Source: an uncultured Eubacteriales bacterium
Lineage (GTDB): Bacteria; Acidobacteriota; Aminicenantia; Aminicenantales; Aminicenantaceae
Length of the DNA stretch: 64,000 nucleotides
Assembly: GCA_964449165.1 (NCBI GenBank)
Contig: CAYVAT010000004.1
Coordinates: forward strand, 91,317 to 155,316
Direction of reading: 5' to 3'
A program made the position numbers and the translations under genes. The notes beneath the pieces are model-generated. The model had not been told where the DNA came from. It did no database searches and worked only from the letters and a program-made list of their open reading frames with translations. The first letter of the stretch is position 1. The number at the start of each line of letters is the position of its first letter. Shown in pieces: positions 1 through 39,768 of this stretch.

Positions 1-2040
1 TGAAGTGTATTCAGTTGAAGGTGGCGTAAAGTTGGAGGTCCAGCGAGCTATTCCTTTTGATATGCGTATCTCATCCAACCAACCATTAAAATGCTCTTCG
101 TTGCCTCTTGATCCGATATAGAATGTGTTTTTTGAATCGTATATTGAAATAAGCCCCATGTGATGCTTATGACCTATTTGAGAACCATCAACAAATGCCA
201 TAAGATCTGATCCATTTCTTAATATTGCTATGTGATACCACGTATCCAATGAGGGAGACCAAGGAAATCGTGCATCTGTGTTGTTGCTTCCGTCAGTGCT
301 GTATGAAAACTTTAAGCTGTTAAACTCTTCCTCCCAAGCAATCTGCCACGCTTTGTTAGGACTATAATAGGGGTATCCAACGAGAACCTGAGTGCGAGAA
401 GTGCTTGCAAACCTCACCCAAAAATCCACGGTGAAGTTGCCAGAGCCAAACGTCAGACCCTCATTGTCAGCAATCTCCAGACGGCCTCCGTCACCTTTAA
501 ACAGGCCGGCCCCTCCTCCAAATTTAGATTGTAATGTACTAGTATGAGCGTTGCCCTTAATATAACCTAAGGATTTTAATCTTTCTATTAACCTCTTATT
601 TTCCTGTTTGATTTCACGCTCGTGCTTCTTGGAGCTAAGAGTAACTTTCCCCAGGTTCCATTCGAAAGATGACAAGCGTTTTTTCATGCTGGCAAATACA
701 AACTTTAAATGCTCATCTGTTAGGTCGCATTCAGATTCCTCAAAACTTAGATTAAAAAGTTGAGGATATGGAGGTGCGAAACGAAGATGTTTATATTGGT
801 AAGTATTTACAAGTTTAAAATTATCTGTTTGGATGCACTCCATGTAAAAAGAAAGCTGCTGCTGATCGCCTTTGGATATGAGTTGTGAAAAAATATATTT
901 CCTTTTGAACTTTTCGCCATTTATTAAACCTCTCAAGCTTTGGCCTTTAAAGGATGAATCATCAGCGATTTTAAAGTCGGATTTTACGTAATCTAGAATT
1001 GTTGGGAGTATGTCAATATGCTGAACTTTTTCAAGAATTATCTTTCCATTTTTTTGATTCGGCAATAAAATAATGAGCGGTATTTTAATTTGTTCTTCAT
1101 AGAGTGAAGTACCATGCCCATTAATAGCTTGTCCTAAAAAATCTTTTCTCTCCCAGAAAGATTCACCATGGTCAGATGTTAAAATAATAATACTGTTTTT
1201 CATTAAGCCACGTTGTTTCAAATAACTTATCAATTTATGAAACTCGGTATCAAAAAAATTGACTTCCCCCATATAAAGTTTTTTCGAAACGCTTTTTTCT
1301 GTGGGCGTAAAATCGCTCGTATCAACCATAGTCTTAAGTTTCGCTCTTCCAGAAACATGCTTTCTTTCTTCTCCTTTCCCAATATATTTTTCTGTATATT
1401 CGATCGGGGGATCGTAAGGATTATGAGGGTCTATGTACCATAGCATTGCGAAAAACTTTTTGTACCTCTTATTATCAAGCCATTTTATAAACTTACTATT
1501 CACCTCATCGCAGTTAGTGTCTCTCCATCTAGTCTCCTCTATAAAAATATCAAATCCTCTGGCAAGTCCCTGTCTACTACTTACATGCGGATTTGTTGAG
1601 ATGCCAAAAGTCTGATATCCTTTCTTTTTTAACAATTCTGCCATGCTTTTAAATCTAGTAGGCAAGCGCCATCGATAATTGATATACCCGTGGTCGGATG
1701 GATAGACCGAGCAGAATATTGACGGAGCAGAATTCATTGTGTTAGGACTCTGAGCAACTGCATTCTTAAATAGGACTGCGTTTTTAGCAAACTCGTCGAT
1801 GTTTGGGGTAAGAGTACTATTCTTGTTATAACATCCTAGACTGTCAGCTCGCCAAGCATCAACTATCAGTAAAATAATGTTGGGTTCTTCAGGCGGATTT
1901 ATTTTGGTTTCGGTGATTACGCTTAAATATAAAACAATAAGAAAGATAATCAGGATAAACGCTGCTCTTTTAATATAGTTGGCTTTTAGAATCTTTGATG
2001 TTTCTGACCATTTTGATAATGCATTGGTTATTTTATTCAT
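1..2040 (-). CDS. Sulfatase-like (alkaline-phosphatase superfamily) enzyme with an N-terminal TM anchor and a C-terminal LamG/ConA-like jelly-roll domain; 3' end runs off the window at position 1
   Basis: Hand translation of the minus strand from the ATG at 2040: MNKITNALSKW..., TM segment AAFILIIFLIVLYLSVI, metal-binding motifs LIVDAWRADSLG and IIILTSDHGESFWER typical of sulfatase/LtaS/EptA-type enzymes; C-terminal FTVDFWVRF...WYHIAI...MAFVDG...FNGWLDEIRISKGIARW is a LamG_3-type module. No Cys-x-Pro-x-Arg formylglycine motif (the equivalent region reads SAPSIF). Frame still open at nt 1. Confidence 0.7.
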   Translation of the reverse strand, partial: MNKITNALSKWSETSKILKANYIKRAAFILIIFLIVLYLSVITETKINPPEEPNIILLIVDAWRADSLGCYNKNSTLTPNIDEFAKNAVLFKNAVAQSPNTMNSAPSIFCSVYPSDHGYINYRWRLPTRFKSMAELLKKKGYQTFGISTNPHVSSRQGLARGFDIFIEETRWRDTNCDEVNSKFIKWLDNKRYKKFFAMLWYIDPHNPYDPPIEYTEKYIGKGEERKHVSGRAKLKTMVDTSDFTPTEKSVSKKLYMGEVNFFDTEFHKLISYLKQRGLMKNSIIILTSDHGESFWERKDFLGQAINGHGTSLYEEQIKIPLIILLPNQKNGKIILEKVQHIDILPTILDYVKSDFKIADDSSFKGQSLRGLINGEKFKRKYIFSQLISKGDQQQLSFYMECIQTDNFKLVNTYQYKHLRFAPPYPQLFNLSFEESECDLTDEHLKFVFASMKKRLSSFEWNLGKVTLSSKKHEREIKQENKRLIERLKSLGYIKGNAHTSTLQSKFGGGAGLFKGDGGRLEIADNEGLTFGSGNFTVDFWVRFASTSRTQVLVGYPYYSPNKAWQIAWEEEFNSLKFSYSTDGSNNTDARFPWSPSLDTWYHIAILRNGSDLMAFVDGSQIGHKHHMGLISIYDSKNTFYIGSRGNEEHFNGWLDEIRISKGIARWTSNFTPPSTEYTS

Positions 2041-2122
2041 TCGATGTTCTAAAGGCGTGTGTTAAAGAAGCCCCTTGCGCCCCTCATCATTTTTAATCGG
2101 ATAGAACCCAGTATTTGCTGTT

Positions 2123-3283
2123 TTAGTGTTGTTTCAATTCCCCCTTGTCAATCTTTACCCAGTTCACTTGTGTAATCATCTGATGCAAAGCCGCTTTGGC
2201 CACGGCGACCTGGGTAGCATACTTCGGTGTTGTGCTTGCAGGAAAAGTTGCGAGTGTTGCGTCGCCGACAAGAAAGACATTGAAGTCTTTGCTCAGATTT
2301 TCGTAGCCGCACGTGGTGCTGATGACACACATATCTGTGGCGTATCCGGTCAGTAAAATGTGACGTACACCTTTGCTCTTCAAGTAATCGCGGACTTTTT
2401 GGTACCCTTCATCGTCATAAAACACTATATCGTTTTTTCTCAGCTCGAGAGATTTAACAATCGGAATCGGCAACTGCCCGTATCCTGGTCCGTTATAGTA
2501 GACACTGTCATCCGTGGAGGGAGTGAGACTAAAGTAGCTCTTAACGGGCGTATTTGCGTCAAGTAGAAGGGTTTTTTTCAATGGATTCCCTTCGAACTTG
2601 TGTCTGCTCAACAATTCAGCGAGCAAGTTCTTACCCTGTTCGATGTCCTGTTCTTCAGGCTTTGTTAATATTGAGGAATAGAGAAGCTTTCGAACTTGGT
2701 CTTCCGAGCCCGGCAAAGAATGTCCTACAAGAGAAACATAACCGCGCAACCGGGATAAAAAAGGGTTAATCACGTCCTGAACGTGCATGATCATTAACTT
2801 ATTTTTTTCTGGAGTGCCGAAGAATTTGCACCCCGCAGGTTCGGGCGTTTTCAGTCCATGTCCATCATCGATACCCCAAGGATGGACATTAATAATTGCT
2901 GTTGCTTTTGCCTCAAGTCGATTCTCCATCTCGACAATACCGCGGGCATTGTACCAGTAACGCCAGGACCTAACGAGCATATCGCTGGCCTTCTCGTCCA
3001 CGACCGGCGGTGCTAGAAAACGGTGATCCGATTGCAAAGGTTGGACATATTCTGGATAGTCAGCCAGCAATGGCATAGGATCTTTGATTTTTTCTAAAGT
3101 ATTATAATAATTATTTGTAGATTTTTCTCTTTTATTCAATTCGTACAACGCTTTCAGTTTTTGATTGGCAAACAGTACCAAGGAAATTGTGAGTAGTCCC
3201 CACAAAATTACGGTAATTATGCTTCTTTGTTTATGGGAATTTCTTTTTAGTACTTGCCGCGAATTCTTTACAATTTTAATCAA
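2123..3283 (-). CDS. Membrane-anchored isochorismatase-family (cysteine hydrolase) protein
   Basis: N-terminal TM (IITVILWGLLTISLVLF); C-terminal region HILLTGYATDMCVISTTCGYENLSKDFNVFLVGDATLA resembles the isochorismatase/CSHase catalytic Cys region. Confidence 0.55.
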   Translation of the reverse strand: MIKIVKNSRQVLKRNSHKQRSIITVILWGLLTISLVLFANQKLKALYELNKREKSTNNYYNTLEKIKDPMPLLADYPEYVQPLQSDHRFLAPPVVDEKASDMLVRSWRYWYNARGIVEMENRLEAKATAIINVHPWGIDDGHGLKTPEPAGCKFFGTPEKNKLMIMHVQDVINPFLSRLRGYVSLVGHSLPGSEDQVRKLLYSSILTKPEEQDIEQGKNLLAELLSRHKFEGNPLKKTLLLDANTPVKSYFSLTPSTDDSVYYNGPGYGQLPIPIVKSLELRKNDIVFYDDEGYQKVRDYLKSKGVRHILLTGYATDMCVISTTCGYENLSKDFNVFLVGDATLATFPASTTPKYATQVAVAKAALHQMITQVNWVKIDKGELKQH

Positions 3284-3391: not shown

Positions 3392-4096
3392 TCACTTAAG
3401 AAAATTCAGTATATATTCACAGTGCATAAAATCAAACTCGGTATCGACATCCATCGATTCTTTTTCAGAGATGATTACACCTTTCATGTTCTGGTTATCC
3501 AAGATATTTTCCTTATAAATGATATGAGTTTTCATAGCATCAACCACACCATTGATTCGATAAACAGGCGGCAGAAGTTGACGCTGATAATATTTGCTGA
3601 GTTTTATGTCTCCTGAAATAAGCTCGGCACTTCCGTCTTCGGATAATCTATACATCCAGTAAGGATGGTGAACTCCTTCCACCAGGGTCATCGTCCTTAC
3701 AACATCTGCACCAGTATCTCTTATCTTCTTGACTACCCTGTCAATGATTTGCGGAGTTTTAAACGGGGTGGTAGGTCTTAAGTTTACGACAATCTCAGGC
3801 TCGTAATCATCGTTGTTTTTTAACCATTCAAGGACATGTAAAAAGACTGGCTGGTCAGGAGTGTCACTTTTGGCTAATTCAGCAGGTCTCAGGAAAGGAA
3901 CCTCCGCGCCCCATTTTCGAGCGACCTCTGCTATTTCTTCATCATCTGTTGAAACAACCAGCCGTTCGATTGAAGTCGAGTGCAATGCGGCCTCGATGGT
4001 GTAAGCAATCAAAGGCTTGCCAGCAAGAAGCCTTATGTTTTTCCTCGGAACTCGCCTGGAGCCTCCGCGAGCAGGAATTATGCCCAGCACCTTCAT
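3392..4096 (-). CDS. CMP-nonulosonate (acylneuraminate-family) cytidylyltransferase, copy 1
   Basis: MKVLGIIPARGGSRRVPRKNIRLLAGKPLIAYTIE...VSTDDEEIAEVARKWGAEV matches the NeuA/CMP-NeuAc synthetase-family N-terminus; ATG at 4096 overlaps the upstream TGA (ATGA), so start taken at the internal Met rather than the ORF-track start. Confidence 0.85.
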   Translation of the reverse strand: MKVLGIIPARGGSRRVPRKNIRLLAGKPLIAYTIEAALHSTSIERLVVSTDDEEIAEVARKWGAEVPFLRPAELAKSDTPDQPVFLHVLEWLKNNDDYEPEIVVNLRPTTPFKTPQIIDRVVKKIRDTGADVVRTMTLVEGVHHPYWMYRLSEDGSAELISGDIKLSKYYQRQLLPPVYRINGVVDAMKTHIIYKENILDNQNMKGVIISEKESMDVDTEFDFMHCEYILNFLK

Positions 4097-5229
4097 TTTA
4101 TTTTTTTTACGATATTCTTCAAATTTTCTATTATGTAGTTTTGATCCTCCACCGTAAGACCAACCCACATAGGTAAATCAATGAGTTGCTTCCATGCCTT
4201 GTAGCTCGTAGGATAGGAGTCATTTTTATACCCAAATCTCTTCTGGTAGTAAGGCTGGATGTGAATAGGGGGAAAACTCAATCGAGTGTCGATTCCTCTC
4301 GATTTTAATTCAGATACAACTCTGTCACGATCCAGCCCTTCTTTCAATGAAACGGCATACATATACCAGGCATGGCGATTGACATATTCAGGCACAAAGG
4401 GTGGAGAAATATCAGTGGATTCCCTGAATGCGTCGCTATACCTTTCAGCAATCTTGTTCTTCTCATTCAGAATAAATTCAACTCTCTTGAGCTGCTCGAT
4501 CCCGATAGCTGCTGGAATATCCGTCATACGATAGTTGTATCCCAGGTGAATATGGTGATACCGATAATCCTGTCCCTGGTTGCGAACCTGCCGTGTTAAG
4601 ACAGCTTTTTCATCATCATCGGTTGTGACCATCCCTCCTTCACCTGTTGTGATGTTCTTGTTTGGAAAGAAGCTGAATATATGTAGAGGAGCGATCGATC
4701 CCACCTTTCTCCCTTTATAAACAGCCCCCAGTGATTCTGCACTGTCAGCAATAACAATCAAGCCCTTCTCTTCTGCAAAAGCGAGCAGGTGGTCATAGTC
4801 AACCGGCATCCCATTCATGTCCACTGCAATTATGGCCTTTGTCTTGCCTGTTATTCTCTTCTCGGCATCTTCAAGGGAGATATTATAAGTCTTTGGATCA
4901 CACTCCACCAGAACCGGAATGGCTCGTTCATACAGTACAACATTAGCAGTCGAGATAAATGTTATGGTAGGAATAAGCACTTCATCGCCTTCCTCAATGC
5001 CAGATGAAATCAAGGCAAGGTGCAAAGCCGTCGTTCCACTGTTGGCTGCAATCGCATGTCTAGCTCCCACATACCTCGCAAATTCATTTTCAAATTCCTC
5101 AACCCTCTTCCCCATACTCAACCATCCGGACTTAACCACCTCGTACACAGCCTTAGCCTCTTCCTCACCGAGGTAGGGATTTGCCAAGGGAATATTTTTC
5201 ATTTGTAAGTGCTCCTTCATTTTATTCAT
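4093..5229 (-). CDS. DegT/DnrJ/EryC1/StrS-family PLP-dependent sugar aminotransferase (PseC/LegC/WbpE-like)
   Basis: NPYLGEEEAKAVYEVVKSGWLSMGKRVEEFENEFARYVGARHAIAANSGTTALHLAL...SFFPNKNITTGEGGMV typical of DegT family; true start may be the internal Met at about 5202. Confidence 0.85.
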   Translation of the reverse strand: MNKMKEHLQMKNIPLANPYLGEEEAKAVYEVVKSGWLSMGKRVEEFENEFARYVGARHAIAANSGTTALHLALISSGIEEGDEVLIPTITFISTANVVLYERAIPVLVECDPKTYNISLEDAEKRITGKTKAIIAVDMNGMPVDYDHLLAFAEEKGLIVIADSAESLGAVYKGRKVGSIAPLHIFSFFPNKNITTGEGGMVTTDDDEKAVLTRQVRNQGQDYRYHHIHLGYNYRMTDIPAAIGIEQLKRVEFILNEKNKIAERYSDAFRESTDISPPFVPEYVNRHAWYMYAVSLKEGLDRDRVVSELKSRGIDTRLSFPPIHIQPYYQKRFGYKNDSYPTSYKAWKQLIDLPMWVGLTVEDQNYIIENLKNIVKKIK

Positions 5230-5250
5230 TACTGTAGATGCCTGAATGTT

Positions 5251-6273
5251 TCATCTTATGATTTCTTCGTCATTACCTTCATATCGTGGAATAGTATCAT
5301 CAGTATACCAGTCGGTCGTCTTCATTAATCCTTTCCTTAAGGATGTTTGAGGTTCATATCCCAGAGACCGTATCTTGGCAATGCTCGGGCACCTTCTTCT
5401 TGTTCCTCCCGGGAGACGCTTGCCAGGTATTATATTAATCTTGAATTCCAGCAATCCTGCAATCTCTTTAGCGAGATCAGCAATGGTGATTTCATCTTCA
5501 GTACCAATGTGGTAGATCTCACGGCTCTTGCCGAGAGTAGCACACAGAAGTATTCCTTCTACAGCGTCATCAATGTAACAGAATGACCTGGTCTCTTCTC
5601 CTGTTCCCTGAATCGGAAAGTCAATCTCTTTCCTTCGAAAATTATCACTCAGTGTTTTCATGCGCAGTATGAATTGGGGGATGACATGACCCACTCCCAT
5701 ATCAGGACCGTAAAAATTGTGTGGACGGCATATCACGGTTCTCAAGCCAGTCTTTGCAGTATAATGAATAGCTAACAGCTCGGTTATTATTTTTCCTCCA
5801 CTGTATGAAAATCTTGGATTTTTGACATCAGGAATAATGAGCCTTTCCTCTTCGGAAGTAGGGATATGTGAAGGCTCCTGATACACTTCTGATGACGAAG
5901 TGACTAAATAATTACTTACTCCGCATCTCATGGCTGCATCTAGTGTATTCAAGGCACCCTTGACACCCACCTCAAGCACCCTTTCAGGAATTCTGTAGAA
6001 ATTCTCTGTGCCGTTGATAAAGGCAAGGTGAAACAGGGTATCAATCCCCTTGCATGCTTGATAAACCTGATTGAAATCTGTGACATCTCCTTCTCTGTAG
6101 TCAACCTTCTCCAGATACCCTTCCAGTCTGCGGACCATTCCCCTTGAGTTGTTGTCGAGGATACGTACAGAGGCACCTCCATCCACCAATCTCTTGGTCA
6201 GATTGGAACCGACGAATCCTGTTCCCCCGGTTATCAATATTTTTCCCAAGTTCGCTGTCTTTATCCTCTGCAT
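5251..6273 (-). CDS. NAD-dependent epimerase/dehydratase (extended SDR), nucleotide-sugar modifying
   Basis: ILITGGTGFVGSNL Rossmann motif, YSGGK catalytic YxxxK, about 340 aa. Confidence 0.8.
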   Translation of the reverse strand: MQRIKTANLGKILITGGTGFVGSNLTKRLVDGGASVRILDNNSRGMVRRLEGYLEKVDYREGDVTDFNQVYQACKGIDTLFHLAFINGTENFYRIPERVLEVGVKGALNTLDAAMRCGVSNYLVTSSSEVYQEPSHIPTSEEERLIIPDVKNPRFSYSGGKIITELLAIHYTAKTGLRTVICRPHNFYGPDMGVGHVIPQFILRMKTLSDNFRRKEIDFPIQGTGEETRSFCYIDDAVEGILLCATLGKSREIYHIGTEDEITIADLAKEIAGLLEFKINIIPGKRLPGGTRRRCPSIAKIRSLGYEPQTSLRKGLMKTTDWYTDDTIPRYEGNDEEIIR

Positions 6274-7943
6274 CCTATCCCTATGTATCTAATGTTATTA
6301 ACTGTTATGATATCTTTAGGTTCAAAGGTATACCAGCCATCCACGAAAATACAGTCATTCCTGGCAGAATTCAGCAAATCAAACACATCCATCTTCTTGT
6401 AGCTTTTATGATTATTCATGATCAGCACCACATCTGCATCCTTGAAGCCTTCAGCGATAGAAACCGGCTTCACACCCAATGCTGTTATCTCTTCCTGTGA
6501 CACGATCGGATCATAGCCAAAAAAGGAGCTGTCTCTCATCCCCTTTTTACGGAAGTGGTTTAATAGATCTATGGTAGTTGAGCCTCTTAGGTCAGATGTT
6601 TCTGGCTCTCCCTTAAAAGCAAATCCAATAATAAAGATTTTTAATTTATCGATCTTTTTCTTCAACTCCATGATCTGTTGATATACGTCTTCCACAATAT
6701 GGTAGGGAATAAATTCGTTTATCTGTCTCGAGTGTGAGACCATCCTGGGTTGGTGCTTTAGTTCCTTACATGAGTGGATCAGGAAGTATGGGTCCTTGGT
6801 AAGGCATGCTCCTCCAACACCAGGGCTGGGTACCGGTATCTCATCCCTTACGTATCCCAGATTTGCGGCCTGTACCAATTTAACCATATCCAGTCCCAAT
6901 TCTTTACACACCAGTGCCATCTCGTTTGCGTACCCGAACTTGACATCGCGGAAGGTGTTATTGAGAATTTTAACCATCTCTGCACCTTCCAAAGATCCTA
7001 CATCCACAATTATCGGTGTAATCTCTCTGAATAACCTGTTAACAAGCATCGTGCTTTTCTTGTCATATCCACCTATTATCTGAGGCAGTTCTTTGATTTC
7101 AGATATCGCTCTGCCTTCAATTGTTCTTTCAGGTGCATAGGCCAAATAGTAATCAATGCCTGCCTTGAGGCCTGACAGCTCGTTCAGGATTGGTAACATG
7201 ACCTCTCTTGTTGTTCTCACCGGTACCGTAGAACGTAAGACAACTAGATCGTCCGGCTTTAAGAATTTGGCTATATACCTGGCGGCTTCCTCGATATTAT
7301 CGATAATTGGTTTCTTCGTCTCAGGGTTAACCGGAGTCCCTACTGATACGATATACGTATCCACTTTCAATCCAGAGAGATCAGAAATAGGGATGAGATT
7401 TTTCCCGACGTATCTATGAAGGTAAGCCTCCAGATTGTCTTCATAAAAGGGAACGAATCCATTCTTGATTTTTTCAATCAGCTTGCCGTCTGTATCATAC
7501 CCAAATACCTTAAATCCAAATTCGGCGAGGACAACCGATAATGTCAAGCCGACATAGCCCAGTCCGATCATACAGATCTGTCGGGACTTGGCATCCAGTA
7601 AAACACTCTTATCCTTGAAGGTTATGACTCCTTTAACACGTCCGTTATCGTCTAATACGGGTATCTGGGCATACTTTTCATTGACCAGCTCCAGCATTGT
7701 CTCCCGACTCATGCCTTCTTTGACCACGATAGGAGAGCGATTCATGATGTTTTTTACGGGTTCATCTGCATCATGCCCGCTTAAGAATCCTCTCCGGATA
7801 TCTCCGTCCGTAACGATACCCACCAGGCGGTCCTCGTCATCCACAATCATGGCAAATTTTGAGGCCGATTCATTGATAGCCTTCATGACCTCAAAAATAC
7901 TCTTACCCTCGGGAACCATTATTGATTGGATATCATATAACAT
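6261..7943 (-). CDS. CBS-pair domain fused to UDP-glucose/GDP-mannose dehydrogenase-family enzyme (UDP-N-acetylhexosamine 6-dehydrogenase-like, WbpA/WecC-type)
   Basis: N-terminal about 110 aa CBS pair (IVTDGDIRRGF...GVITFKD), then CMIGLGYVGLTLSVVLAEFGFKVFGYDTD NAD-binding start and conserved GGAC(L)TKD catalytic region. Confidence 0.8.
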   Translation of the reverse strand: MLYDIQSIMVPEGKSIFEVMKAINESASKFAMIVDDEDRLVGIVTDGDIRRGFLSGHDADEPVKNIMNRSPIVVKEGMSRETMLELVNEKYAQIPVLDDNGRVKGVITFKDKSVLLDAKSRQICMIGLGYVGLTLSVVLAEFGFKVFGYDTDGKLIEKIKNGFVPFYEDNLEAYLHRYVGKNLIPISDLSGLKVDTYIVSVGTPVNPETKKPIIDNIEEAARYIAKFLKPDDLVVLRSTVPVRTTREVMLPILNELSGLKAGIDYYLAYAPERTIEGRAISEIKELPQIIGGYDKKSTMLVNRLFREITPIIVDVGSLEGAEMVKILNNTFRDVKFGYANEMALVCKELGLDMVKLVQAANLGYVRDEIPVPSPGVGGACLTKDPYFLIHSCKELKHQPRMVSHSRQINEFIPYHIVEDVYQQIMELKKKIDKLKIFIIGFAFKGEPETSDLRGSTTIDLLNHFRKKGMRDSSFFGYDPIVSQEEITALGVKPVSIAEGFKDADVVLIMNNHKSYKKMDVFDLLNSARNDCIFVDGWYTFEPKDIITVNNIRYIGIGCRG

Positions 7944-8000
7944 CTCAGACTTTCCTTTCTAAAAAACTTATTACAAATAATATTGATTTAAAAATTTCTG

Positions 8001-8837
8001 TCAGAGGAGGTTCATCACCTGCTGTGAATTCATATAATCAGCGAGGGAGATGAGCGAATCATCATCTGGAAGGAACAGGAAATTCTCATTTGAGCGGTTG
8101 AATTGCCTTGGATTTTTGAGTATCGCTCCGGATTTTATTTGAGTGATCATGTAACCCAGTTCTTTCAGCAATTGTGCAGCATGGCTCTTTGAAGGATTGT
8201 CATCCTCCCATTTCTCACGGAGTATTTCGAGCACTATTACAGGTCGGTTCTTGACAATGGTGCTTTTTGCTCCTTCAAGGACAGCGTTCTCATGACCTTC
8301 TGCATCACATTTAATCAGCGAAACTCGTCTGTCAGATAGGGTTGAATAAGCGAGGTTGTCCAGCTGATTGGCAGGGATTTGGATTTTCTGCATATGCTCA
8401 TCATTTTTTATTTGATCTGCAGTATCAACTATGGCTGCAGTAGAGGAGATGGATGTATATGGAGGGACGAACATTTTCTTGGAACAGGCCTTGTTTGAAA
8501 GAGCGATATTCAGGCAAAGAATATTGCTATGGCGTTTTGTTCTTTTTTTTAGGAACTGATAATTCCCTGGGACAGGCTCGAAAGCGACTACAATACCATT
8601 TGGTCCCACTAGATGAGAAAGTCTTATCGTCCAGGCACCAATGTATGCACCAACATCAACAGCAGCAGAATCCTTTTCAACCAGACCTGACACAGAATTA
8701 AGCAAAGTGATCTCATTTGCTGTTAATTCTTCAGTGAGAAGTATATTTATTCTCTTGTAGTTATGCTGTATGAATGATGCGGCCGATTGACCGAGAAGCC
8801 TGTATATTGTTTTACGGAGTGCTCTTGGAATTCTCAA
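8001..8837 (-). CDS. FkbM-family SAM-dependent methyltransferase
   Basis: VDVGAYIGAWTIRLSHLVGPNGIVVAFEPVPGNYQFL...LIKCDAEGHENAVLEGA is the FkbM-domain pattern. Confidence 0.7.
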   Translation of the reverse strand: MRIPRALRKTIYRLLGQSAASFIQHNYKRINILLTEELTANEITLLNSVSGLVEKDSAAVDVGAYIGAWTIRLSHLVGPNGIVVAFEPVPGNYQFLKKRTKRHSNILCLNIALSNKACSKKMFVPPYTSISSTAAIVDTADQIKNDEHMQKIQIPANQLDNLAYSTLSDRRVSLIKCDAEGHENAVLEGAKSTIVKNRPVIVLEILREKWEDDNPSKSHAAQLLKELGYMITQIKSGAILKNPRQFNRSNENFLFLPDDDSLISLADYMNSQQVMNLL

Positions 8838-9715
8838 TCTTCCCTTCTTAAAATATTTTTAACCATCTGATATTGGCTCATGATCTCTGCTGTTTTAATT
8901 CCCCTGCATTCGATGGTTATCGGTATCTTTCCCGGATCAAATCTCCTTACAGCTCTCAGTTGCCAGCAATCCGGGGCTAAAAGAACATGTTCATCTTTCT
9001 TGCCATCATTTCCAGATAAATGGATTTCAAAAATCTTGTCCTGGAAACCTTTGCTAAGGGTTTCTATGAATTCGTCTTTATTGAAACCAAAATAATTTGC
9101 GGAGATAACGAGATGCCCTAAATCTAACAGAAAGCCTATATTGTCGTCCTGTCTGCAATAATCGAGAAACTGAATAATCTCAGCCGGAGTGCAGAGTAAT
9201 GAACTATCAGGAGCATCACTAATCGGAAAGAGGTTCTCCAGACCAATCCTGACTCCCCGCATGACAGCATATTTCCTGATCTCCAAAAGCGATTCATACA
9301 TAATGGCTGATGCATATGCAGGGCTTATACCTGAATAACCATCAGCTACAAAGTAATCACTTTCTTGTGAGGCTCGTAATTCTCTCGTATAGCCTGGATG
9401 CAGCGTATAGCAATCTATTTCTAAATCATGGGCTAGATCGATGCTTCTTTTGACAAAATTGATGCTTTTTAATCTTGTTTCTTTATTACTGCTTGCAATA
9501 TTTAAAACAAAGTCTTTCTTGGATGGAGGGAAATAATTATGAATGAGAAGATTAAGAGAAAATTCTTTCTTTAAGCCTTTCAGTTTTTTCAAGATGTTGT
9601 CAGAATAGCTCAGTCCTCCGCTGAGCTCAATATTACAAATACAAATACTAGCAAGTGTGTTGATAGATTCCTCTAGAGAAGAGCTGTTAACAGCTGCAGA
9701 AGAAACATAGATCAT
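8834..9715 (-). CDS. Xylose-isomerase-like TIM-barrel sugar (phosphate) isomerase/epimerase family protein
   Basis: Motifs YTLHPGY, GLENLFP and LDLGHL spaced as in AP-endonuclease-2/xylose-isomerase TIM barrels. Confidence 0.6.
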   Translation of the reverse strand: MIYVSSAAVNSSSLEESINTLASICICNIELSGGLSYSDNILKKLKGLKKEFSLNLLIHNYFPPSKKDFVLNIASSNKETRLKSINFVKRSIDLAHDLEIDCYTLHPGYTRELRASQESDYFVADGYSGISPAYASAIMYESLLEIRKYAVMRGVRIGLENLFPISDAPDSSLLCTPAEIIQFLDYCRQDDNIGFLLDLGHLVISANYFGFNKDEFIETLSKGFQDKIFEIHLSGNDGKKDEHVLLAPDCWQLRAVRRFDPGKIPITIECRGIKTAEIMSQYQMVKNILRRED

Positions 9716-21038: not shown

Positions 21039-22002
21039 ATCCCTTGAGTGTTAATGACAGTCCTTCAGATAATGTATATCTAGGCTTCCATCCAGTAAAT
21101 TTTTTTAGAAGGCTGTTGTCAAGGATCAGCGTTGAATTTGAAGGCTCATAATTACCTTGTGGTTGAACTTCGTTGATGGGAACAGAGCCTATGCGGCTTG
21201 CCATCTTAACCAGATTAAAAACAGTTGTTCCGATCCCAGTTGATAAATTGACAGTATAACATCCATGCTTATCTGTGGAAACAAATAGATGTATCAGGCC
21301 TTCAATAACATCATCGACGTATATGAAATCTCTTATCGGGGTTAAATCACGAACAACAATTCTTTCGCCATTTTTAATTCTTTTTATAACAGTGCTAACA
21401 ACCGTATCTTCATTGCTTCCTAGCCCATAGACATTGCCTAATCTAGCGATAAAACAGGTTATTTTAAAACTCTTTGAATGACCTGTTATTATTGCTTCTG
21501 CGGATAATTTCAAGCCGGCGTAGATATTTTGAGGAGTTGGGGAAGTTTCCTCGGTCACCGGCTGCCTATGATAATCTCCGTAAACAAGCCCGGTGGATGG
21601 GAAAATGAATTTCCCTATTTTGTTTTGTCTGCAAAATTCTAATGCCTGAAAAGTCAGTAATACATGTGATTTGAAGGCCTTTAGCGGATTTTCTTCACAC
21701 TCTCCTGCGTGAGCAATGCCTGCCATATGAAATACAGCGGTTATACCTCTTTTTTCTGACAGCAGTTCAGATAGTGCTTCATCTGATTTCTCAGGAAAAC
21801 CCCCATGGATAAAACGAAAGGAATTATGCAGGATAATTTCGGCAGAATGTTTCGGAAATTGTTTGTTGGAATCAATCCCAACAACAAATGCTCCATTATC
21901 CAGGAGAGCCTTCACTAAACGGCTGCCCAAGAATCCGCTGGCCCCTGTGACCAGGATTCCGTATCTTTCTAAACTACCAGTTTTCGATATCATCGGGGCC
22001 AA
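21031..22002 (-). CDS. NAD-dependent epimerase/dehydratase-family SDR
   Basis: ILVTGASGFLGSRLVKAL Rossmann motif, YAGLK YxxxK. Confidence 0.75.
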   Translation of the reverse strand: MAPMISKTGSLERYGILVTGASGFLGSRLVKALLDNGAFVVGIDSNKQFPKHSAEIILHNSFRFIHGGFPEKSDEALSELLSEKRGITAVFHMAGIAHAGECEENPLKAFKSHVLLTFQALEFCRQNKIGKFIFPSTGLVYGDYHRQPVTEETSPTPQNIYAGLKLSAEAIITGHSKSFKITCFIARLGNVYGLGSNEDTVVSTVIKRIKNGERIVVRDLTPIRDFIYVDDVIEGLIHLFVSTDKHGCYTVNLSTGIGTTVFNLVKMASRIGSVPINEVQPQGNYEPSNSTLILDNSLLKKFTGWKPRYTLSEGLSLTLKGYD

Positions 22003-23011
22003 TCTGAGAGTCCTTTTGAATATCTCTTGCGGCTTTCTTGCCCAGTACCCTGTTAAGTTCGGGTGCTAAAATGGCTCCAGTCCCGGGTCTTTTTACCCAT
22101 GTGTTTTCAAGAGAGAACACTTTTCCAGCCCTTACAGGAGCAATGGCCACAACAGAGGCATAGGCAAAATCGATGACTGGTTGTTCCTCCGGCAGGATAG
22201 TTTTATGGCCACCCAGGGCTGAAAATATTGCTTTTGAACCTTTTACTAGCTCTGTCAGCTCATCTGGCTCTATAGAAATTGGAACGTCGGGACCGGGCCA
22301 CTCACGAGTTATCGTGAAGTGTTTTTCAAGGGCAGCAGCCCCTAATGCCACAGCACCCAGGCATGTGTATATGCCGATGGAATGATCACTTAGCCCGACA
22401 GGTAAACCAAACATATCCTGCAGCTCCTTTATAGCGCCGAGACGAACCTTTTCATATGGGGTCGGATACATAGAAGTGCAATGCATCAGCATGAGAGGTG
22501 TTTCATATTTTTGAATAGCCTTAACTGATTTTTTAATGGATTCCACATCATTCATTCCAGTTGATAATATTATTGGCTTTCCGAACTTGGTGATATGTTC
22601 CAATAGGGGAATATTGTTGCATTCACCTGAGCCGATCTTGAAAGCTGAGACATTTATAGACTGGAGACGGTCTGCTGCCTCTCTGGAAAAGGGAGTACAG
22701 AGGTATATGATTCCTTTGTCTTCACAGTATTTCTTTATCCGTATTTCCTCCTCCCCAGTCAGCTCGCATCTCTTTATTATGTCCCAAAGACGCTCTTCGG
22801 ATATCTCACCTGGTTTCATGTCTGTGGGAATCATTTCAGCCTCTGTGATATGACTTTGAAATTTTACACAGTCAGCCCCTGCCTTGACTGCCGCATCCAC
22901 ACACTGGATTGCTTTATCAAAGCTCCCTTCATGATTGATGCCTACCTCGGCTATTATAAAAGGTGGATATTGAGGGCCGATTTTACGGTGATTTATCTGG
23001 AATTCCATCAT
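21974..23011 (-). CDS. NeuB-family nonulosonic acid synthase, copy 2
   Basis: FIIAEVGINHEGSFDKAIQCVDAAVKAGADCVKFQSH plus C-terminal SAF domain; clearly paralogous to, but distinct from, copy 1. Confidence 0.85.
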   Translation of the reverse strand: MMEFQINHRKIGPQYPPFIIAEVGINHEGSFDKAIQCVDAAVKAGADCVKFQSHITEAEMIPTDMKPGEISEERLWDIIKRCELTGEEEIRIKKYCEDKGIIYLCTPFSREAADRLQSINVSAFKIGSGECNNIPLLEHITKFGKPIILSTGMNDVESIKKSVKAIQKYETPLMLMHCTSMYPTPYEKVRLGAIKELQDMFGLPVGLSDHSIGIYTCLGAVALGAAALEKHFTITREWPGPDVPISIEPDELTELVKGSKAIFSALGGHKTILPEEQPVIDFAYASVVAIAPVRAGKVFSLENTWVKRPGTGAILAPELNRVLGKKAARDIQKDSQIGPDDIENW

Positions 23012-23101: not shown

Positions 23102-23956
23102 TCACCAGGCTGTCCAGCCGCCATCGATGACCAGAGTCGCCCCTGTCATGTAGCGGGATGCATCGCTGGCAAGGAAGAGGATGGCACCGTTATAATCTGA
23201 CCAGGTGGCCATTCTTCCTAAGGGAGTGCGTTTCACATATTCTTTATGGAATGAGCTCTCCTGGCCGTCATAGACACCACCCGGGACGAGAACATTGACC
23301 CTGACATTGAATTCTCCCCATGATGCTGCCAGATGCCTTGCTAATCCTATCAATCCTGCCTTGGATGCAGAATAGGAGGCAGGACAATTCAACGGGTCAG
23401 CACCTCCATAAATATTTTTTTCTGGTGAGCAACCTTTGTAGATCCTCTGGTCTGGCCCCACGATGCCGTATATAGAAGAAGTTAAGACGATTGAACCTGC
23501 GCGGGATTTTTTCATGTAGTTTACAGCCTCCCGGCAGCACAAAAAAGCTCCGGTCATATTTCCATTCAAAATACTCTTCCATGTGCTTACAGGATACTGG
23601 TCTAAAGGCCTATAATATCCATCTGGTTTTGTCATGACGTTGTAGATAAGGATATCCACTCTTCCCCAAGAATGATGAATCTTTTTGAATAACTCTTGAA
23701 CCTCCATTTCTTTGCTCGCATCGCATTTCAACCCCATCACAGAAGTGCCTGTCAGAGTCGTAACCTCTTTTGCCACAGCTTTACATTTTCTGGCATCGAT
23801 ATCACCTAGTGCGACATTTGCCTGTGCATATCCTAATGTAATGGCAAACTGTCTCCCCATCTTTCCTGCTCCGCCAATGATGACTGCTGTCTTTCCTTTC
23901 AGGTTGAAGAGGGACTCAACCTTATTGAGTTCGGGTATTTTAGAGTAGTCAGACAT
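23102..23956 (-). CDS. Classical short-chain dehydrogenase/reductase (PtmA-like)
   Basis: KTAVIIGGAGKMGRQFA TGxxxGxG-like motif, YSASK catalytic YxxxK. Confidence 0.8.
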   Translation of the reverse strand: MSDYSKIPELNKVESLFNLKGKTAVIIGGAGKMGRQFAITLGYAQANVALGDIDARKCKAVAKEVTTLTGTSVMGLKCDASKEMEVQELFKKIHHSWGRVDILIYNVMTKPDGYYRPLDQYPVSTWKSILNGNMTGAFLCCREAVNYMKKSRAGSIVLTSSIYGIVGPDQRIYKGCSPEKNIYGGADPLNCPASYSASKAGLIGLARHLAASWGEFNVRVNVLVPGGVYDGQESSFHKEYVKRTPLGRMATWSDYNGAILFLASDASRYMTGATLVIDGGWTAW

Positions 23957-24668
23957 TTGTTACCTCTCTGGATTGTTTCATTAAGAATTCGACAATCTTA
24001 AAATCCAATTCCGTATCAATATGAATGGACCGCTCTTCTGGAACCAGAAAGAGACGAGTACGAGGGGGGATTCGCTTGCCGATATCCATGATTGCCTCTC
24101 TTGAGTATATCCATACGGTGGTGTCAAGATCATACACAGGAGGGCACTCCTGACGGCATCCTATATCCCTGTCTGTGGGCATCAATATCTGGACAAAACC
24201 GTCTTCTAAACAAACCATATTAAAATAAGGGCTGCGGTGCGCTTCACATCCAGAGACTACGGCTTGGCAGGCACCATCATGGTGAAACAGTGACAAGGCT
24301 TCTTCTACGTCCTTGACCTTACGCAGGGGGCTGGTTGGATCTAACAATACTAGTATCTTCACTCTTTCTCTGTATATTTCCTCAACGGACTGAACGGCAT
24401 GCTGCATCACCGGCAGCATCGGTGTGTCATCCTTTGCCAATTCAGGAGGCCTGATAAAAGGGACCTCAGCTCCCCATTTTCTCGAAATTTCTGCGATCTC
24501 CGAATCGTCTGTTGAAACGATTGGCTTATCTATAAAAGAGCAGGCCCGTGCACACTCGACAGTATAAGATATCAAAGGTTTTCCCAAAAGGTGTCTGATG
24601 TTTTTCTTTTTTATACCCTTTGATCCACCCCTTGCAGGAATAAGTCCGAGCACCAGACCTGAATTCAT
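23949..24668 (-). CDS. CMP-nonulosonate cytidylyltransferase, copy 2 (LegF/PtmB/NeuA-like)
   Basis: LGLIPARGGSKGIKKKNIRHLLGKPLISYTVE...VSTDDSEIAEISRKWGAEV. Confidence 0.85.
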   Translation of the reverse strand: MNSGLVLGLIPARGGSKGIKKKNIRHLLGKPLISYTVECARACSFIDKPIVSTDDSEIAEISRKWGAEVPFIRPPELAKDDTPMLPVMQHAVQSVEEIYRERVKILVLLDPTSPLRKVKDVEEALSLFHHDGACQAVVSGCEAHRSPYFNMVCLEDGFVQILMPTDRDIGCRQECPPVYDLDTTVWIYSREAIMDIGKRIPPRTRLFLVPEERSIHIDTELDFKIVEFLMKQSREVTNV

Positions 24669-34799: not shown

Positions 34800-34801
34800 G
34801 T

Positions 34802-35799: not shown

Positions 35800-37269
35800 T
35801 TAAATATCGAGTTCGAGCTGGCGTTCTTGAGCTAGTTTCCTTTCTTTTTCTATAGATTCCAGAATTTCCGGAGTCACATCACCAGTGGGATAAATACCGT
35901 CAAAGCAGGCTCCGCAGAAATTGGTGAGCTTCTTGTTGCCTAACTGGACAGCTTTTTTTAGGGACTCGAGAGTTTGATATATGACCTTGTCTGCACCAAT
36001 TTTTTTAGTTATCTGGTCAAGGTTCGCATTCCGGGCGATAAACTCGGTTTTGGTTTGCATGTCGATTCCGTAGACGCAGGGATATCTCAGAGGAGGAGAA
36101 TAGGCGGAGAAGTAAACCTTTTTTGCACCACAGTCACGGATCATTTGGATGATGGCCCTGGAGGTGTTTCCTCTGACAATGCTGTCGTCCACGAGCAGGA
36201 CATTCTTTCCTTCGAGTTCTGAGACGATAGGATTCAGCTTGTGACGGACAGAAGTCTTTCGCTCTTCGTCTGCTGGCATGATAAAGGTCCGGCCAATATA
36301 GCGGTTCTTTACCAGAGCTTCTCTATATTTTAAATTAAGCCTGCGAGCGATTTCTATGGCGGCGTCCCGCGCAGAATCAGGTACAGGAACAACGACGTCT
36401 ATCTTCAGGTTGTGTTTTTTTATCTCTTCCGCCAGAAAACGGCCCAGGTTGACCCGGCAATCGTAGACATTGACATTGTCGATGAAGGAATCGGGCCGGG
36501 CAAAATAGACCCATTCAAAAAGGCAGGGAGTATGGGGACAATTGGCGATCTTTCGGGTGTGAAGACCTCGATTCCTGTCGATGAAGAGGGCTTGGCCGGC
36601 TTTCACGTTTTTGATGTCGGAGAAATTCATGATATTGAGGGAGACGCTTTCGGAAGCTATGGCGTAGGAAGTTAAAAGCCCGTCCTCCCTCTTTCCGTAG
36701 ACAAGAGGTTTGATTCCATAGGGATCGCGGAATGCAACCATCCCTTGTCCGGCTATATAAGCAACAACGGAATAGCTTCCTCTGGCTTTTTTGAACACGC
36801 CTTCGACAGCTTTGAACACATGCCTGGGAGCTAAGTTTTTGGTTTTTTGCTCGGCCAGTTCCTGGGCGAACACATTGAGGATTGCTTCCAGATCACAGTC
36901 CGAGTTTAGGAGGCGGTGGTATTTTTCGAAGATGATTTTTCTGAGTTGGTCATAGTTGATGACATTGCCATTGTGGGCCATGATGATACCGAAGGGGGAA
37001 TTAACCAGAAAGGGTTGGGCATCTTCTCCTCTTCCGCCTCCCACGGTCGGGTAGCGGGTGTGGCCGATACCGATATTTCCCCTTAAACGGTGGAGATTTT
37101 CTGCGGTGAAGATGTCCCGAACCAGCCCATTTCCCTTTTTTATGTGAAAACGACCATCATAGGTAATGATTCCTGCGGCATCCTGACCCCGATGCTGTAC
37201 AGCCAACAGGCCTTGATAGAGGTCTTTGAAGGTGTCCTCGTTTCCCCAGATACCGATAACACCACACAT
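35800..37269 (-). CDS. purF: Amidophosphoribosyltransferase (glutamine PRPP amidotransferase)
   Basis: MCGVIGIWG Ntn-Cys start, GATase-II domain, PRTase motif VLLVDDSIVRGNT, C-terminal Cys cluster; start set at the MCG Met (37269) rather than 37287. Confidence 0.9.
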   Translation of the reverse strand: MCGVIGIWGNEDTFKDLYQGLLAVQHRGQDAAGIITYDGRFHIKKGNGLVRDIFTAENLHRLRGNIGIGHTRYPTVGGGRGEDAQPFLVNSPFGIIMAHNGNVINYDQLRKIIFEKYHRLLNSDCDLEAILNVFAQELAEQKTKNLAPRHVFKAVEGVFKKARGSYSVVAYIAGQGMVAFRDPYGIKPLVYGKREDGLLTSYAIASESVSLNIMNFSDIKNVKAGQALFIDRNRGLHTRKIANCPHTPCLFEWVYFARPDSFIDNVNVYDCRVNLGRFLAEEIKKHNLKIDVVVPVPDSARDAAIEIARRLNLKYREALVKNRYIGRTFIMPADEERKTSVRHKLNPIVSELEGKNVLLVDDSIVRGNTSRAIIQMIRDCGAKKVYFSAYSPPLRYPCVYGIDMQTKTEFIARNANLDQITKKIGADKVIYQTLESLKKAVQLGNKKLTNFCGACFDGIYPTGDVTPEILESIEKERKLAQERQLELDI

Positions 37270-37443
37270 TTCTCTCTCATGATTCATTATAATCGTTTTT
37301 TTCCTTTTATGAAAGGAGGTGATATGCCCTGTAAACTCTTTCTTTTCCTTGATGAGAGAGGATTATATATCCCTCATATTAGCTATCAAGGAAATGGAAG
37401 TGCTTCTATGTGTCCTTTATAAAAGCCTGAGGCCACCATAACC

Positions 37444-39768
37444 TCAAATTTCTTGATCATTAAAGTGAATTAATAAGATTGTAAATGAGTCTTTAGTGTA
37501 TTCACCTGAATTTGGAGTAAAATTGGAGCCCCATCGGGCTATTCCCTTTGATATGCGTATCTCATCCAGCCAGCCATTGAAATGCTCTTCAGCGCCTCTG
37601 GATCCGATATGGAGCGGAGCTTCTGAATCGTATATTGAGACCTGCCCTATATCATGACTTTCACCTAGCTGAAAGCCATCAACAAAGGCCATAAGGTCTG
37701 AATCCTTCCTGACTATGGCTATGTGGTACCATCTATCCTTTGATGCAGACCAGTGGAACTTCGCATCCGTGTCGTTTTCTCCATCTGAACTATAGGAGAA
37801 CTTTATGCTTTTCGATTCTCCCTCCCATGCAATCTGCCATGCCTTGTCAGGACTGTAATACGGGTAGCCAACGAGAACCTGAGTTCCAGATGTATGTACA
37901 AATCTCACCCAGAAATCTATCGTGAAGTCTTCCGAGCTAAATGCCCAGCCTGGACGGTCTGCAACCTGCAGGTGGCTTCCGGCTCCATCAAAGAAAACAG
38001 ATGCACTGCCAAATTTTGGGTGTGCTGTATCAATCCGAACATTTCCATGAGGTATTATACTTCCCAACCGGAAGAGTTTGAATATGCCAATATGATAGAT
38101 TTCGGTGACATCGAACTCTTGATCCTTGATCCTTATTTTCTTTGGTTTATTTTGAAGTTGACTGAGAACAGGATCCTTATCCCAAGACCTGAATGAGGCA
38201 ATATATTTGATGTCTTTAATAAATAGATTTTTTGTATAATATGTAACAATATTTTTCTCGGGTATATCAGAAAGATAAGTAGCACAGGGCACCATTTTTC
38301 CAGGCATTAGTATCATTTCCTCGTTTTTCACTCTGTTTTTGACAACATTTAATCCAGCTTTTAAATCCCACAAACCGCCATACATATTATTGACTGTTGA
38401 TATGTGAGTGGAGACTAATGGAGTTATCAGCAAAAATAGAGGCAATAATAATAAATGACCTTTCGACCTGAAATGCCCTACTTTAAAAAAAACGTATACA
38501 CAGATTGGCAGAAATATTAAAAATCTTTTGAGGCTGTTTATATCAAAGCTGAGACTGAAAAACTCATGGTATGAATTTCTTATATACGGTGTGTTGAAAG
38601 CGCTATAAGCTACAATAATTCCCAATATTCCCAAAATAGATGCCACGATTATTTTTTTTTGATGTGGCCATCGCTTTAGAAAATATTCAATACCAGCGAT
38701 TGTATAAAGAGGGAACATCCACTCAATGAAATAGAAAAATCGCCAGGTTGTGTAGAAATAAAACCACAGGAAGAACAAGTACGCCAGAAAAAAGGTGTGC
38801 ACCTTCCAGTTGTTCAGCTTATTAAATTTAATCAGATGGAATAATCCAATCAAAATAATTAAAATGTTAATAATCCATACTATTTGTACCCACCAACTGC
38901 TATGAAATCTGGTTTCAGGCGTTACAGAAGCCCAATGATCAGCTGGCAAATAGGATAAGGTTATGGTACGCAACAGGGAAATAAAATCTCCTGTTGGCTT
39001 GCTTGTAACAAAAAGTTTATGCTTGAACAGGGCTGGAATATATCCACCTTTACCGATGAAAAAAAAATGATTGACCAGCAGCCAGATGGCAGAAGGCAGA
39101 AGGACGATAAAAGTTAGAAATATTAGACGCCATTTTTTTTTAGTAATAATTTTGGGCAAATTGGCAAGCACCGCTAATGCTGCGTCATACCGAGTAAATG
39201 CAGCGAGACCAGAGATGGACAAGGAGAGTTTTTCATTTGTGACATAAAAGGAGAGAAGGATCAGGACCAGCATTGTAGCCTCAGGTAGGGGTTGTGTTCC
39301 ACAATAGAGAGAAAGGCTTGAAAAAGCAAAAATCCAGCTGACAAGGAATGAATTTTTTATTCCGATCTTCTTGCTTATCTTATAGATAAGAATTATCGAA
39401 CATAGATAAGTGAAATTACTCAGAAGGATACCAGAATAAAGGATAGCTTTCTTTACTGAAATAAGCTGTGAAACCAATCCCATTAGCAGAGGGAAAAGAG
39501 GTTCTCTTAAAGTTCCAAATGGCAGATTAAAATGAAGCAGTGCTTCAGTAATATCCTTAAAAGCAAAAAAATCGCTTAAAGGAGAATAGTATTTTCCAGA
39601 GAGTAAAACTAGATAATAACAAGATATTCCTAATGTTAATGCAAGGGCCGAGATAGAAGCGACATCCTTCTTTTTGGGGTAATCACTATTTTGTGGTTTT
39701 TCACACAGTGGGAATTTGCTTTTTTTGGGTTGCAGCAATTCTCTCCATTTTTTATTCAAATTTAACAA
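37444..39768 (-). CDS. Polytopic GT-C-type membrane glycosyltransferase (ArnT/PMT-like) fused to a C-terminal LamG/ConA-like domain
   Basis: About 12 predicted TM helices over the first 450 aa with the loop and TM pattern of ArnT/GT39/GT83 enzymes; last 180 aa (FTIDFWVRFVHTSGTQVLVGYPYYSPDKAWQIAWEGE...FNGWLDEIRISKGIARW) about 70 percent identical to the C-terminus of the sulfatase-like protein at 1-2040. Confidence 0.6.
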   Translation of the reverse strand: MLNLNKKWRELLQPKKSKFPLCEKPQNSDYPKKKDVASISALALTLGISCYYLVLLSGKYYSPLSDFFAFKDITEALLHFNLPFGTLREPLFPLLMGLVSQLISVKKAILYSGILLSNFTYLCSIILIYKISKKIGIKNSFLVSWIFAFSSLSLYCGTQPLPEATMLVLILLSFYVTNEKLSLSISGLAAFTRYDAALAVLANLPKIITKKKWRLIFLTFIVLLPSAIWLLVNHFFFIGKGGYIPALFKHKLFVTSKPTGDFISLLRTITLSYLPADHWASVTPETRFHSSWWVQIVWIINILIILIGLFHLIKFNKLNNWKVHTFFLAYLFFLWFYFYTTWRFFYFIEWMFPLYTIAGIEYFLKRWPHQKKIIVASILGILGIIVAYSAFNTPYIRNSYHEFFSLSFDINSLKRFLIFLPICVYVFFKVGHFRSKGHLLLLPLFLLITPLVSTHISTVNNMYGGLWDLKAGLNVVKNRVKNEEMILMPGKMVPCATYLSDIPEKNIVTYYTKNLFIKDIKYIASFRSWDKDPVLSQLQNKPKKIRIKDQEFDVTEIYHIGIFKLFRLGSIIPHGNVRIDTAHPKFGSASVFFDGAGSHLQVADRPGWAFSSEDFTIDFWVRFVHTSGTQVLVGYPYYSPDKAWQIAWEGESKSIKFSYSSDGENDTDAKFHWSASKDRWYHIAIVRKDSDLMAFVDGFQLGESHDIGQVSIYDSEAPLHIGSRGAEEHFNGWLDEIRISKGIARWGSNFTPNSGEYTKDSFTILLIHFNDQEI

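Follow-up and report, generated by a model that had tools for sequence, protein, structure and literature searches.

The window analysed here, a stretch of 64,000 nucleotides from an uncultured Aminicenantaceae bacterium (assembly GCA_964449165.1, contig CAYVAT010000004.1, positions 91,317 to 155,316), encodes two predicted inner-membrane enzymes, A and B, which are unrelated to each other and onto whose periplasmic C-terminus a LamG/pentraxin-type jelly-roll of about 190 residues appears to have been grafted. Both C-terminal ends are two-sheet jelly-rolls of the LamG/ConA type, and both genes belong to one large cluster for lipopolysaccharide (LPS), O-antigen and nonulosonic acid (NulO). The shuffling of the LamG module between unrelated hosts is well supported by the sequence comparisons, and the module probably serves A and B as a glycan-binding handle. 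The two modules were located as follows:

1-555, minus strand: LamG module of gene A (residues 496-680 in the window; Pfam Laminin_G_3; the full end was taken from P0095 and L081)
37444-38049, minus strand: LamG module of gene B with the stop codon (residues 564-764 of P0078), including the C-terminal ILLIH strand

Gene A starts at 2040 on the minus strand and is truncated by the left edge of the window, its last 29 residues and the stop codon being outside. The complete A protein is P0095 (709 aa), and the lost end was provided by L081, a contig 99.9% identical to the window. Gene B occupies 37444-39768 of the minus strand; the start given in the database is at 39738 and that of the longest open reading frame (ORF) at 39768.

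The comparison of nucleotides 1-2100 with 37301-39900 by blastn resulted in one gapless high-scoring segment pair between 4-501 and 37495-37992, with an identity of 372/498 (75%, E 1e-93). The gapless block spans 166 codons, of which 116 encode identical amino acids (70%), and the identities at codon positions 1, 2 and 3 were 78%, 86% and 60%, respectively. With the end from L081 added, the homology comprised 548 nt at 75% and stopped exactly at the stop codon of B; its upstream limit was no more than about 10 codons away from ...LKSLGYI in A and from ...RLGSII in B. The A and B proteins were 61% identical by blastp (129/211, E 6e-81), and no similarity between them was detected by blastp outside the module. 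The Laminin_G_3 (PF13385) matches of 67.8 bits (A, E 1.5e-18) and 61.2 bits (B) were well above the Pfam gathering cut-off of 27.6. These results agree with an earlier sequence-only reading of the window, in which the ends were taken for LamG modules of about 75% nucleotide and about 70% amino-acid identity on unrelated catalytic parts. The three strings quoted there were also found at both sites: GCTATTCC[T/C]TTTGATATGCGTATCTCATCCA at 47-77 and 37538-37568, CAATCTGCCA[C/T]GC at 339-351 and 37830-37842, and CCAACGAGAACCTGAGT at 377-393 and 37868-37884.

Three trivial sources of the match were considered. Chance is excluded by the E-values, and low complexity was rejected since both segments are Laminin_G_3 domains above the cut-off. 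An assembly artefact was rejected as well, the same fusions being present in the independent assemblies L081, L082, L085, L084 and L089. No third copy of the module was found within the window, and no extra copies were found in all the fetched neighbouring contigs.

Homologues without the module end at the junction. Among the 16 aligned members of the B family (A2), the module was carried by four, P0079, P0080, P0082 and the window's own P0078; the other 12 had a length of 526-560 aa and no PF13385. The four LamG-less members that were read (P0081, P0083, P0084, P0094) terminate where the module of B starts, and the orthologues P0081 and P0083-P0092 end at ...FRLF..S.I, i.e. after the alpha/beta domain. 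In the neighbour-joining tree of the B family, both clades mix LamG-bearing and LamG-less members, so that either one ancestral gain followed by two losses or repeated gains would account for the distribution. With A homologues, PF13385 was detected in one of the 120 listed, which was P0095, the window's own protein, and the closest ones end at ...LKSLGYI, the junction.

The best genomic match of the module was a third host, a 930-aa membrane protein of Ca. Aminicenans sakinawicola (OP8; L001:8309-11101, AWNV01000001.1). This protein has about 10 transmembrane (TM) helices and a weak match to the YfhO C-terminal region (23.4 bits, below the gathering score of 28.5), and the module is inserted between the TM bundle and the final TM helix. 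An orthologue of 948 aa with the same layout was found in another metagenome (L091:4285-7131). The module was all that the B family and the YfhO-like host had in common according to hhalign. In L001, the YfhO-like gene directly follows a NulO operon that has the gene order of window 3392-12963 (collinear, 78-86% identical) and is therefore syntenic with A, and the B orthologue of Ca. Aminicenans sakinawicola, P0083, has no module. The module-less homologues ending at the junction and the third host in a sister species thus bear out the domain shuffling proposed in the sequence-only reading.

The determined dN between the modules of A and B was 0.20 and the dS was 0.84-0.99 (dN/dS about 0.2); both copies are under purifying selection. 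The identities of module and host were 69% and 65% between B and P0082, 88% and 79% between B and P0080, and 62% and 71-73% between the two YfhO-like hosts. Since the divergence of the modules roughly keeps pace with that of their hosts in the B and YfhO families, the fusions are old, vertically inherited and not homogenised by gene conversion, and the dS of about 0.9 together with the dN of 0.20 likewise indicates that those of A and B are old and selectively maintained. The similarity that had been described as paralogy at the DNA level is hence real, but it stems from an old duplication and not from a recent event. A recent duplication or an ongoing gene conversion between A and B within the genome would agree with the 75% nucleotide identity, the several identical runs of 17-30 nt and the number of shared codons: 69 of the 108 degenerate codons for identical residues were the same in A and B, about 44 being expected from codon usage. 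Still, this explanation is extremely unlikely considering the high dS, the third-position identity of just 60% and the parallel divergence of modules and hosts; moreover, A and B are not the closest module pair. The GC content was 43-48% in the modules and 35% in the catalytic part of either host gene, compared with 43% for the window as a whole.

The broad LamG sequence family comprised 47,988 cluster representatives at E <= 1e-3, with giant proteins of 5-30 tandem copies as the top matches. The genome matches were mostly from Omnitrophota, the candidate phyla radiation (CPR), Planctomycetota and others, and were giant repeat or small stand-alone proteins. Giant multi-repeat LamG proteins also dominated the representative search: among its best 150 matches, P0078 and P0095 were the only single-stretch proteins, and no further hosts of the subclade were present among the matches listed. 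A word-index search with the 201-aa module alone yielded stand-alone LamG proteins whose identity did not exceed 46%; as P0078 and P0095 were missed although both are in the database, such a search is not exhaustive and cannot support the absence of closer relatives. Scanning of metagenomes with KAWQIAW/EEHFNGW gave 3 loci, every one of the known host types. The seven modules were monophyletic in 100% of bootstraps, with identities of 58-75% across hosts and 34-51% to outgroups; donor and recipient were not separable in this phylogeny, as the internal nodes had bootstraps of at most 53%. The signature of the subclade, GYPYYSPxKAWQIAWE, has so far been found solely in Aminicenantes-like contigs.

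Members of the broad LamG family have the strand motif YTxLLLHxDG at the N-terminus. In the modules of A and B, the equivalent D.YT.LL.H.N is at the C-terminus (window 1-60 and 37447-37500; P0095 residues 682-694), where the structure model predicts a strand for the YT.LL.H.N segment (module residues 190-194). The C-terminal position of a motif which is N-terminal in the family suggests that the module was excised out of register from a tandem array, which would be equivalent to a circular permutation.

Apart from the module, the following features were assigned to gene A:

556-2040, minus strand: catalytic part (Pfam Sulfatase PF00884; matches to PDB sulfatases)
1909-1965, minus strand: single TM anchor, residues 26-44, with a K/R-rich N-terminus ahead of this sole TM helix
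985-1884, minus strand: sulfatase-fold domain, residues 53-352 (PF00884, E 1.7e-44)
within 556-2040, minus strand: C-terminal subdomain and linker, ending at ...RLKSLGYI
1738-1740, minus strand: codon of Thr101, at the formylglycine Cys/Ser position in phmmer alignments to 7oz8 and 4upi

The architecture of A is accordingly a K/R-rich N-terminus, one TM helix, a sulfatase-fold domain, a linker and the LamG module. The score with PF00884 was 152.8 bits (cut-off 25), and sulfatases of the PDB were matched down to 1e-24. However, the C/S-x-P-x-R formylglycine motif is absent in A; the aligned position is T-M-N-S-A, and T-[IM]-N-S-A is conserved in the homologues P0096-P0114. As Thr replaces the Cys/Ser to be converted to formylglycine and the motif is missing, A is probably not a true sulfatase, and the label given to it in the sequence-only reading needs to be corrected. 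A genuine sulfatase that desulfates an envelope or environmental glycan, with LamG as a catabolic carbohydrate-binding module (CBM), would be in line with the best sequence matches of A, which are arylsulfatases and choline sulfatases, and CBM-like domains on sulfatases are common in polysaccharide degraders. This role is nonetheless very unlikely. In addition to the missing motif, the match with the NCBIfam arylsulfatase was only 146 bits (cut-off 481), no NCBIfam cut-off was passed, and the closest homologues of A are encoded in biosynthetic loci and have an N-terminal region with several TM helices, similar to LtaS/EptA.

Those homologues (P0096-P0114) are 55-62% identical to A, and their additional N-terminal region comprises about 200 aa. 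Only the last TM helix of this multi-TM region is kept in A (window 1909-2040). No remnant of the multi-TM N-terminus was found upstream of A in the window. A comparison with the homologues indicates that A lost this region and acquired LamG. One homologue without LamG is encoded at the end of an operon for sugar biosynthesis and glycosyltransferases (GTs), and A belongs to a Thr-type sulfatase-fold family linked to glycan loci. In common with the transferases LtaS, EptA, OpgB and BcsG (PF00884), A has a periplasmic sulfatase-fold domain with a predicted Thr nucleophile, here Thr101 at the aligned formylglycine position, and a glycan-biosynthesis context; the multi-TM N-terminal region is shared by its closest homologues. 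In contrast to these transferases, which have an N-terminal domain of about 5 TM helices, A has one TM helix and LamG, and its sequence resembles true sulfatases more than LtaS (28.7 bits, cut-off 970) or EptA (18.7 bits, cut-off 561), neither family being matched. Rather than a sulfatase, A, with a fold of the alkaline-phosphatase superfamily, is more likely a periplasmic transferase or hydrolase of phospho-esters on an envelope glycan.

For gene B, the features outside the module were as follows:

38050-38331, minus strand: small alpha/beta domain, predicted to be periplasmic, residues 470-563, preceding the module (AF2 secondary structure)
38332-39738, minus strand: polytopic membrane domain with about 13 TM helices, GT-C fold
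39571-39573, minus strand: codon of Asp56, in the invariant YYSPLSDFFAFK loop right after TM1 (helix 26-50), from 16 family members

B had no Pfam match even at E <= 10 and no NCBIfam match, and its alignment to the neighbouring PMT_2 protein by hhalign had a probability of 0.2. By sequence it does not belong to a described GT-C family (PMT_2, YfhO, ArnT, others). B was placed solely by structure comparison: the best matches of its model were all GT-C glycosyltransferases, and the predicted polytopic core was superimposable on solved GT-C enzymes. The loop directly after TM1 was invariant in the 16 homologues, so that B has a conserved acidic residue, D56, in the first extracytoplasmic loop, as is characteristic of GT-C enzymes. 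Asp56 is a candidate for the catalytic or donor-binding acid, and judging by the model, B defines an unannotated GT-C family with the invariant YYSPLSDFFAFK loop.

The 13 predicted TM helices of B with alternating basic loops are consistent with an N-in, C-out topology, which would put the alpha/beta domain and LamG on the periplasmic side. Taken together with the GT-C and sulfatase-fold architectures, the positive-inside topology suggests that both hosts are membrane-anchored and expose their modules on the periplasmic side, as had been proposed. B would presumably add a sugar from a polyprenyl-phosphate donor to a periplasmic glycan. As regards the donor, a GT2 of 292 aa adjoins B orthologues, standing directly after them in L083 and L086-L088. 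The neighbours of B in the window are a PurF-like gene and a CapK-like ligase, one on either side, and just a flippase-like PF03706 gene (41531-42502) is nearby.

The left part of the window, from its edge to about 53 kb, constitutes an envelope-glycan super-locus with two NeuB-based NulO pathways, CMP-transferases, BFO_1060-family GTs, Wzz, LptD, dTDP/GDP-sugar genes, an O-antigen ligase, a heptosyltransferase and a Kdo/WaaP-like kinase. The locus goes on to the left of the window with genes for a B12-radical SAM protein, a PMT_2 GT-C, a deacetylase, DegT, GT2 and AsnB. The operon closest to A is:

3392-12963, minus strand: NulO biosynthesis and transfer operon, directly upstream of A in the direction of transcription (Pfam and NCBIfam)

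This operon encodes a CMP-transferase, DegT, an epimerase, a UDP-sugar dehydrogenase, FkbM, a PglD-like protein, NeuB and a BFO_1060-family GT. A module-bearing enzyme was repeatedly found beside NulO genes, namely A in the window and the YfhO-like hosts in L001 and L091.

In the sequence-only reading, A and B were regarded as a dedicated, coupled sulfatase and GT-C decoration system, both docked on one polymer by the shared lectin. The location of both genes in the same super-locus and the 70% identity of the selectively maintained modules agree with such a system, but it was judged to be decidedly unlikely. A and B belong to separate transcription units at a distance of about 35 kb, and the conserved neighbours of B, unlike those of A, are a CapK-like ligase, a flippase-like gene and a radical SAM-SPASM gene. 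The presence of the module on A and on B was not correlated across genomes: B orthologues occur without A, and in Ca. A. sakinawicola it is another enzyme than the B orthologue that has the module. No signal of co-evolution was detected either, the module of A being 66% identical to that of B and 71% to modules of other genomes, and A is not a true sulfatase in all probability.

Several further observations concern the surroundings of the two genes. Directly downstream of A, L081:4381-7443 contains a gene of a B12-binding radical SAM protein and, on the opposite strand, a canonical 480-aa PMT_2 (ArnT-like) GT-C without LamG, so that together with B at least two GT-C enzymes are encoded in the locus. 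A PurF-like glutamine amidotransferase/phosphoribosyltransferase of 495 aa (35800-37287), an odd neighbour for a glycosyltransferase, is immediately downstream of B and also present in the independent contig L085. On the other side, 40100-43561 encodes the CapK/PaaK-like adenylating ligase, the PF03706 flippase-like membrane protein and the radical SAM-SPASM protein, a conserved neighbourhood of B that is also present in L084 and is possibly related to acyl or amino-acid modification of a glycan. The two NeuB-family synthase genes (10338-11393 and 21974-23011) have each their own CMP-transferase (3392-4168 and 23949-24668) and sugar-modifying set, which suggests that the locus directs the synthesis of two different nonulosonic acids. 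The large proteins of 11497-12963 and 12976-14571 are candidate NulO transferases with weak BFO_1060-family glycosyltransferase matches, one of them also matching Capsule_synth; the protein of 11497-12963 is 74-85% conserved beside the YfhO-LamG genes in L001 and L091. Two ORFs of the glycan locus, 51407-52678 (423 aa) and 14648-15895 (415 aa), had no significant family match, the latter having a sub-threshold match to a prenyltransferase toroid.

The explanation preferred for these data is that LamG on A and B is a non-catalytic CBM-like handle, which would keep each enzyme on its polymeric acceptor, as in EmbC, AftD and ORF12; on balance, we regard this as probable, though by no means certain. 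That both modules dock on the same glycan is plausible, the synteny with NulO genes being the sole and circumstantial support. The acceptor may be a NulO-containing polymer from the neighbouring operon, for which the repeated adjacency of module-bearing enzymes to NulO genes is circumstantial evidence. The residues invariant in all hosts and specific to the subclade are clustered in G61-E76 (GYPYYSPxKAWQIAWE) and I148-F157 (IGSRGxEEHF). These segments are rich in Tyr and Trp; their clustering fits a conserved ligand site and does not identify the ligand.

Alternatively, the module might be a domain for protein-protein docking or oligomerisation, by which A, B and, in relatives, the YfhO-like enzymes would be recruited to one another or to a shared partner in the periplasm or outer membrane instead of a glycan. 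The nearest structural neighbours of the module include protein-binding LamG/pentraxin domains (PAPP-A, PTX3, neurexins), and the invariant residues of the segments 61-76 and 149-157 would fit any conserved partner. Protein docking is nevertheless rather unlikely: each of the three hosts is a glycan-modifying enzyme encoded in a glycan locus, the published beta-sandwich appendages on GT-C enzymes bind glycans, and no candidate partner gene co-occurred with the module.

Some facts also weigh against the glycan-binding handle itself. LamG folds bind carbohydrates, proteins, steroids or Ca2+, and the fold alone does not mean sugar binding. As LamG-less B orthologues are common, the core activity of B does not depend on the module. 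The assignment of B relies on a full-length model of mediocre quality (pLDDT 58.9) in a protein whose sequence matches no GT-C family. B is not adjacent to NulO genes, and the link to the NulO product is one of gene neighbourhood only. In the published case of ORF12, described below, the CBM was dispensable (PMC11127046).

The arrangement of B has precedents, and the statement of the sequence-only reading that nothing of the kind had been described was too strong. Layouts similar to that of B, a polytopic GT-C membrane domain followed by a C-terminal extracytoplasmic beta-sandwich, are found in AftD, EmbC and ORF12, and the appendage of these known enzymes binds the polysaccharide that acts as acceptor. 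AftD is reportedly a GT-C with a C-terminal CBM. Mycobacterial EmbC has a lectin-like CBM as its C-terminal domain (PMC3044687). The founding member of GT136, Citrobacter youngae ORF12, is a GT-C enzyme which ribosylates O-antigen in the periplasm; its C-terminal beta-sandwich binds the unmodified O-polysaccharide and was dispensable under the tested conditions (PMC11127046). Unlike in these enzymes, the membrane domain of B matches no sequence family, its appendage is a LamG of the Laminin_G_3 type from a subclade specific to Aminicenantes, a non-GT enzyme bears the same module too, and glycan binding is proposed by analogy only.

The L001/L091 host shares its layout, in which a large outer domain lies between a TM bundle and the final TM helix, with the YfhO-type GT-C of three-component extracytoplasmic glycosylation systems, and the B orthologues of relatives are, as in these systems, followed by a GT2 of about 292 aa (PMC5836110, PMC8035078). 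In contrast to the YfhO systems, the Pfam YfhO match of this host is sub-threshold, and the organism is a diderm with LPS genes and not a producer of teichoic acids. To our knowledge, no insertion of LamG into YfhO proteins has been described. Laminin_G_3/CBM-like modules also occur on secreted carbohydrate-active enzymes, such as domain 4 of the GH43 AbnA and CBM40 of sialidases. Unlike these modules and the LamG repeats in giant surface proteins of Omnitrophota and CPR, the module described here is on biosynthetic, membrane-embedded hosts and has the LLLHxDG strand at the C-terminus instead of the N-terminus.

CBMs on glycan enzymes, GT-C included, are already established, so the conceptual gain is modest. 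What is notable is the presence of one module on three unrelated biosynthetic membrane enzymes of an uncultured phylum, together with the unannotated GT-C family of B and the Thr-type sulfatase-fold family of A; otherwise, the case is fairly ordinary domain shuffling. The spread of a single non-catalytic module among unrelated membrane-embedded enzymes of glycan biosynthesis is a clean natural case, with exact junctions and with module-less orthologues as controls. A bolder and unlikely reading is that the Aminicenantes LamG subclade is a lectin specific to the NulO-containing surface polymer of the adjacent operon and a portable "address tag" across at least three unrelated periplasmic modifying enzymes. 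If so, the sulfatase-fold, the novel GT-C and the YfhO-like hosts would each act on the NulO polymer only, and the tag would be a counterpart, on the side of biosynthesis, of CBM40, the module by which sialidases bind sialic acid. Should the module be a handle specific to one glycan, it would indicate the surface polymer modified by these uncharacterised enzymes of an uncultured phylum, and it could yield lectins of new specificity, perhaps towards pseudaminic- or legionaminic-type sugars.

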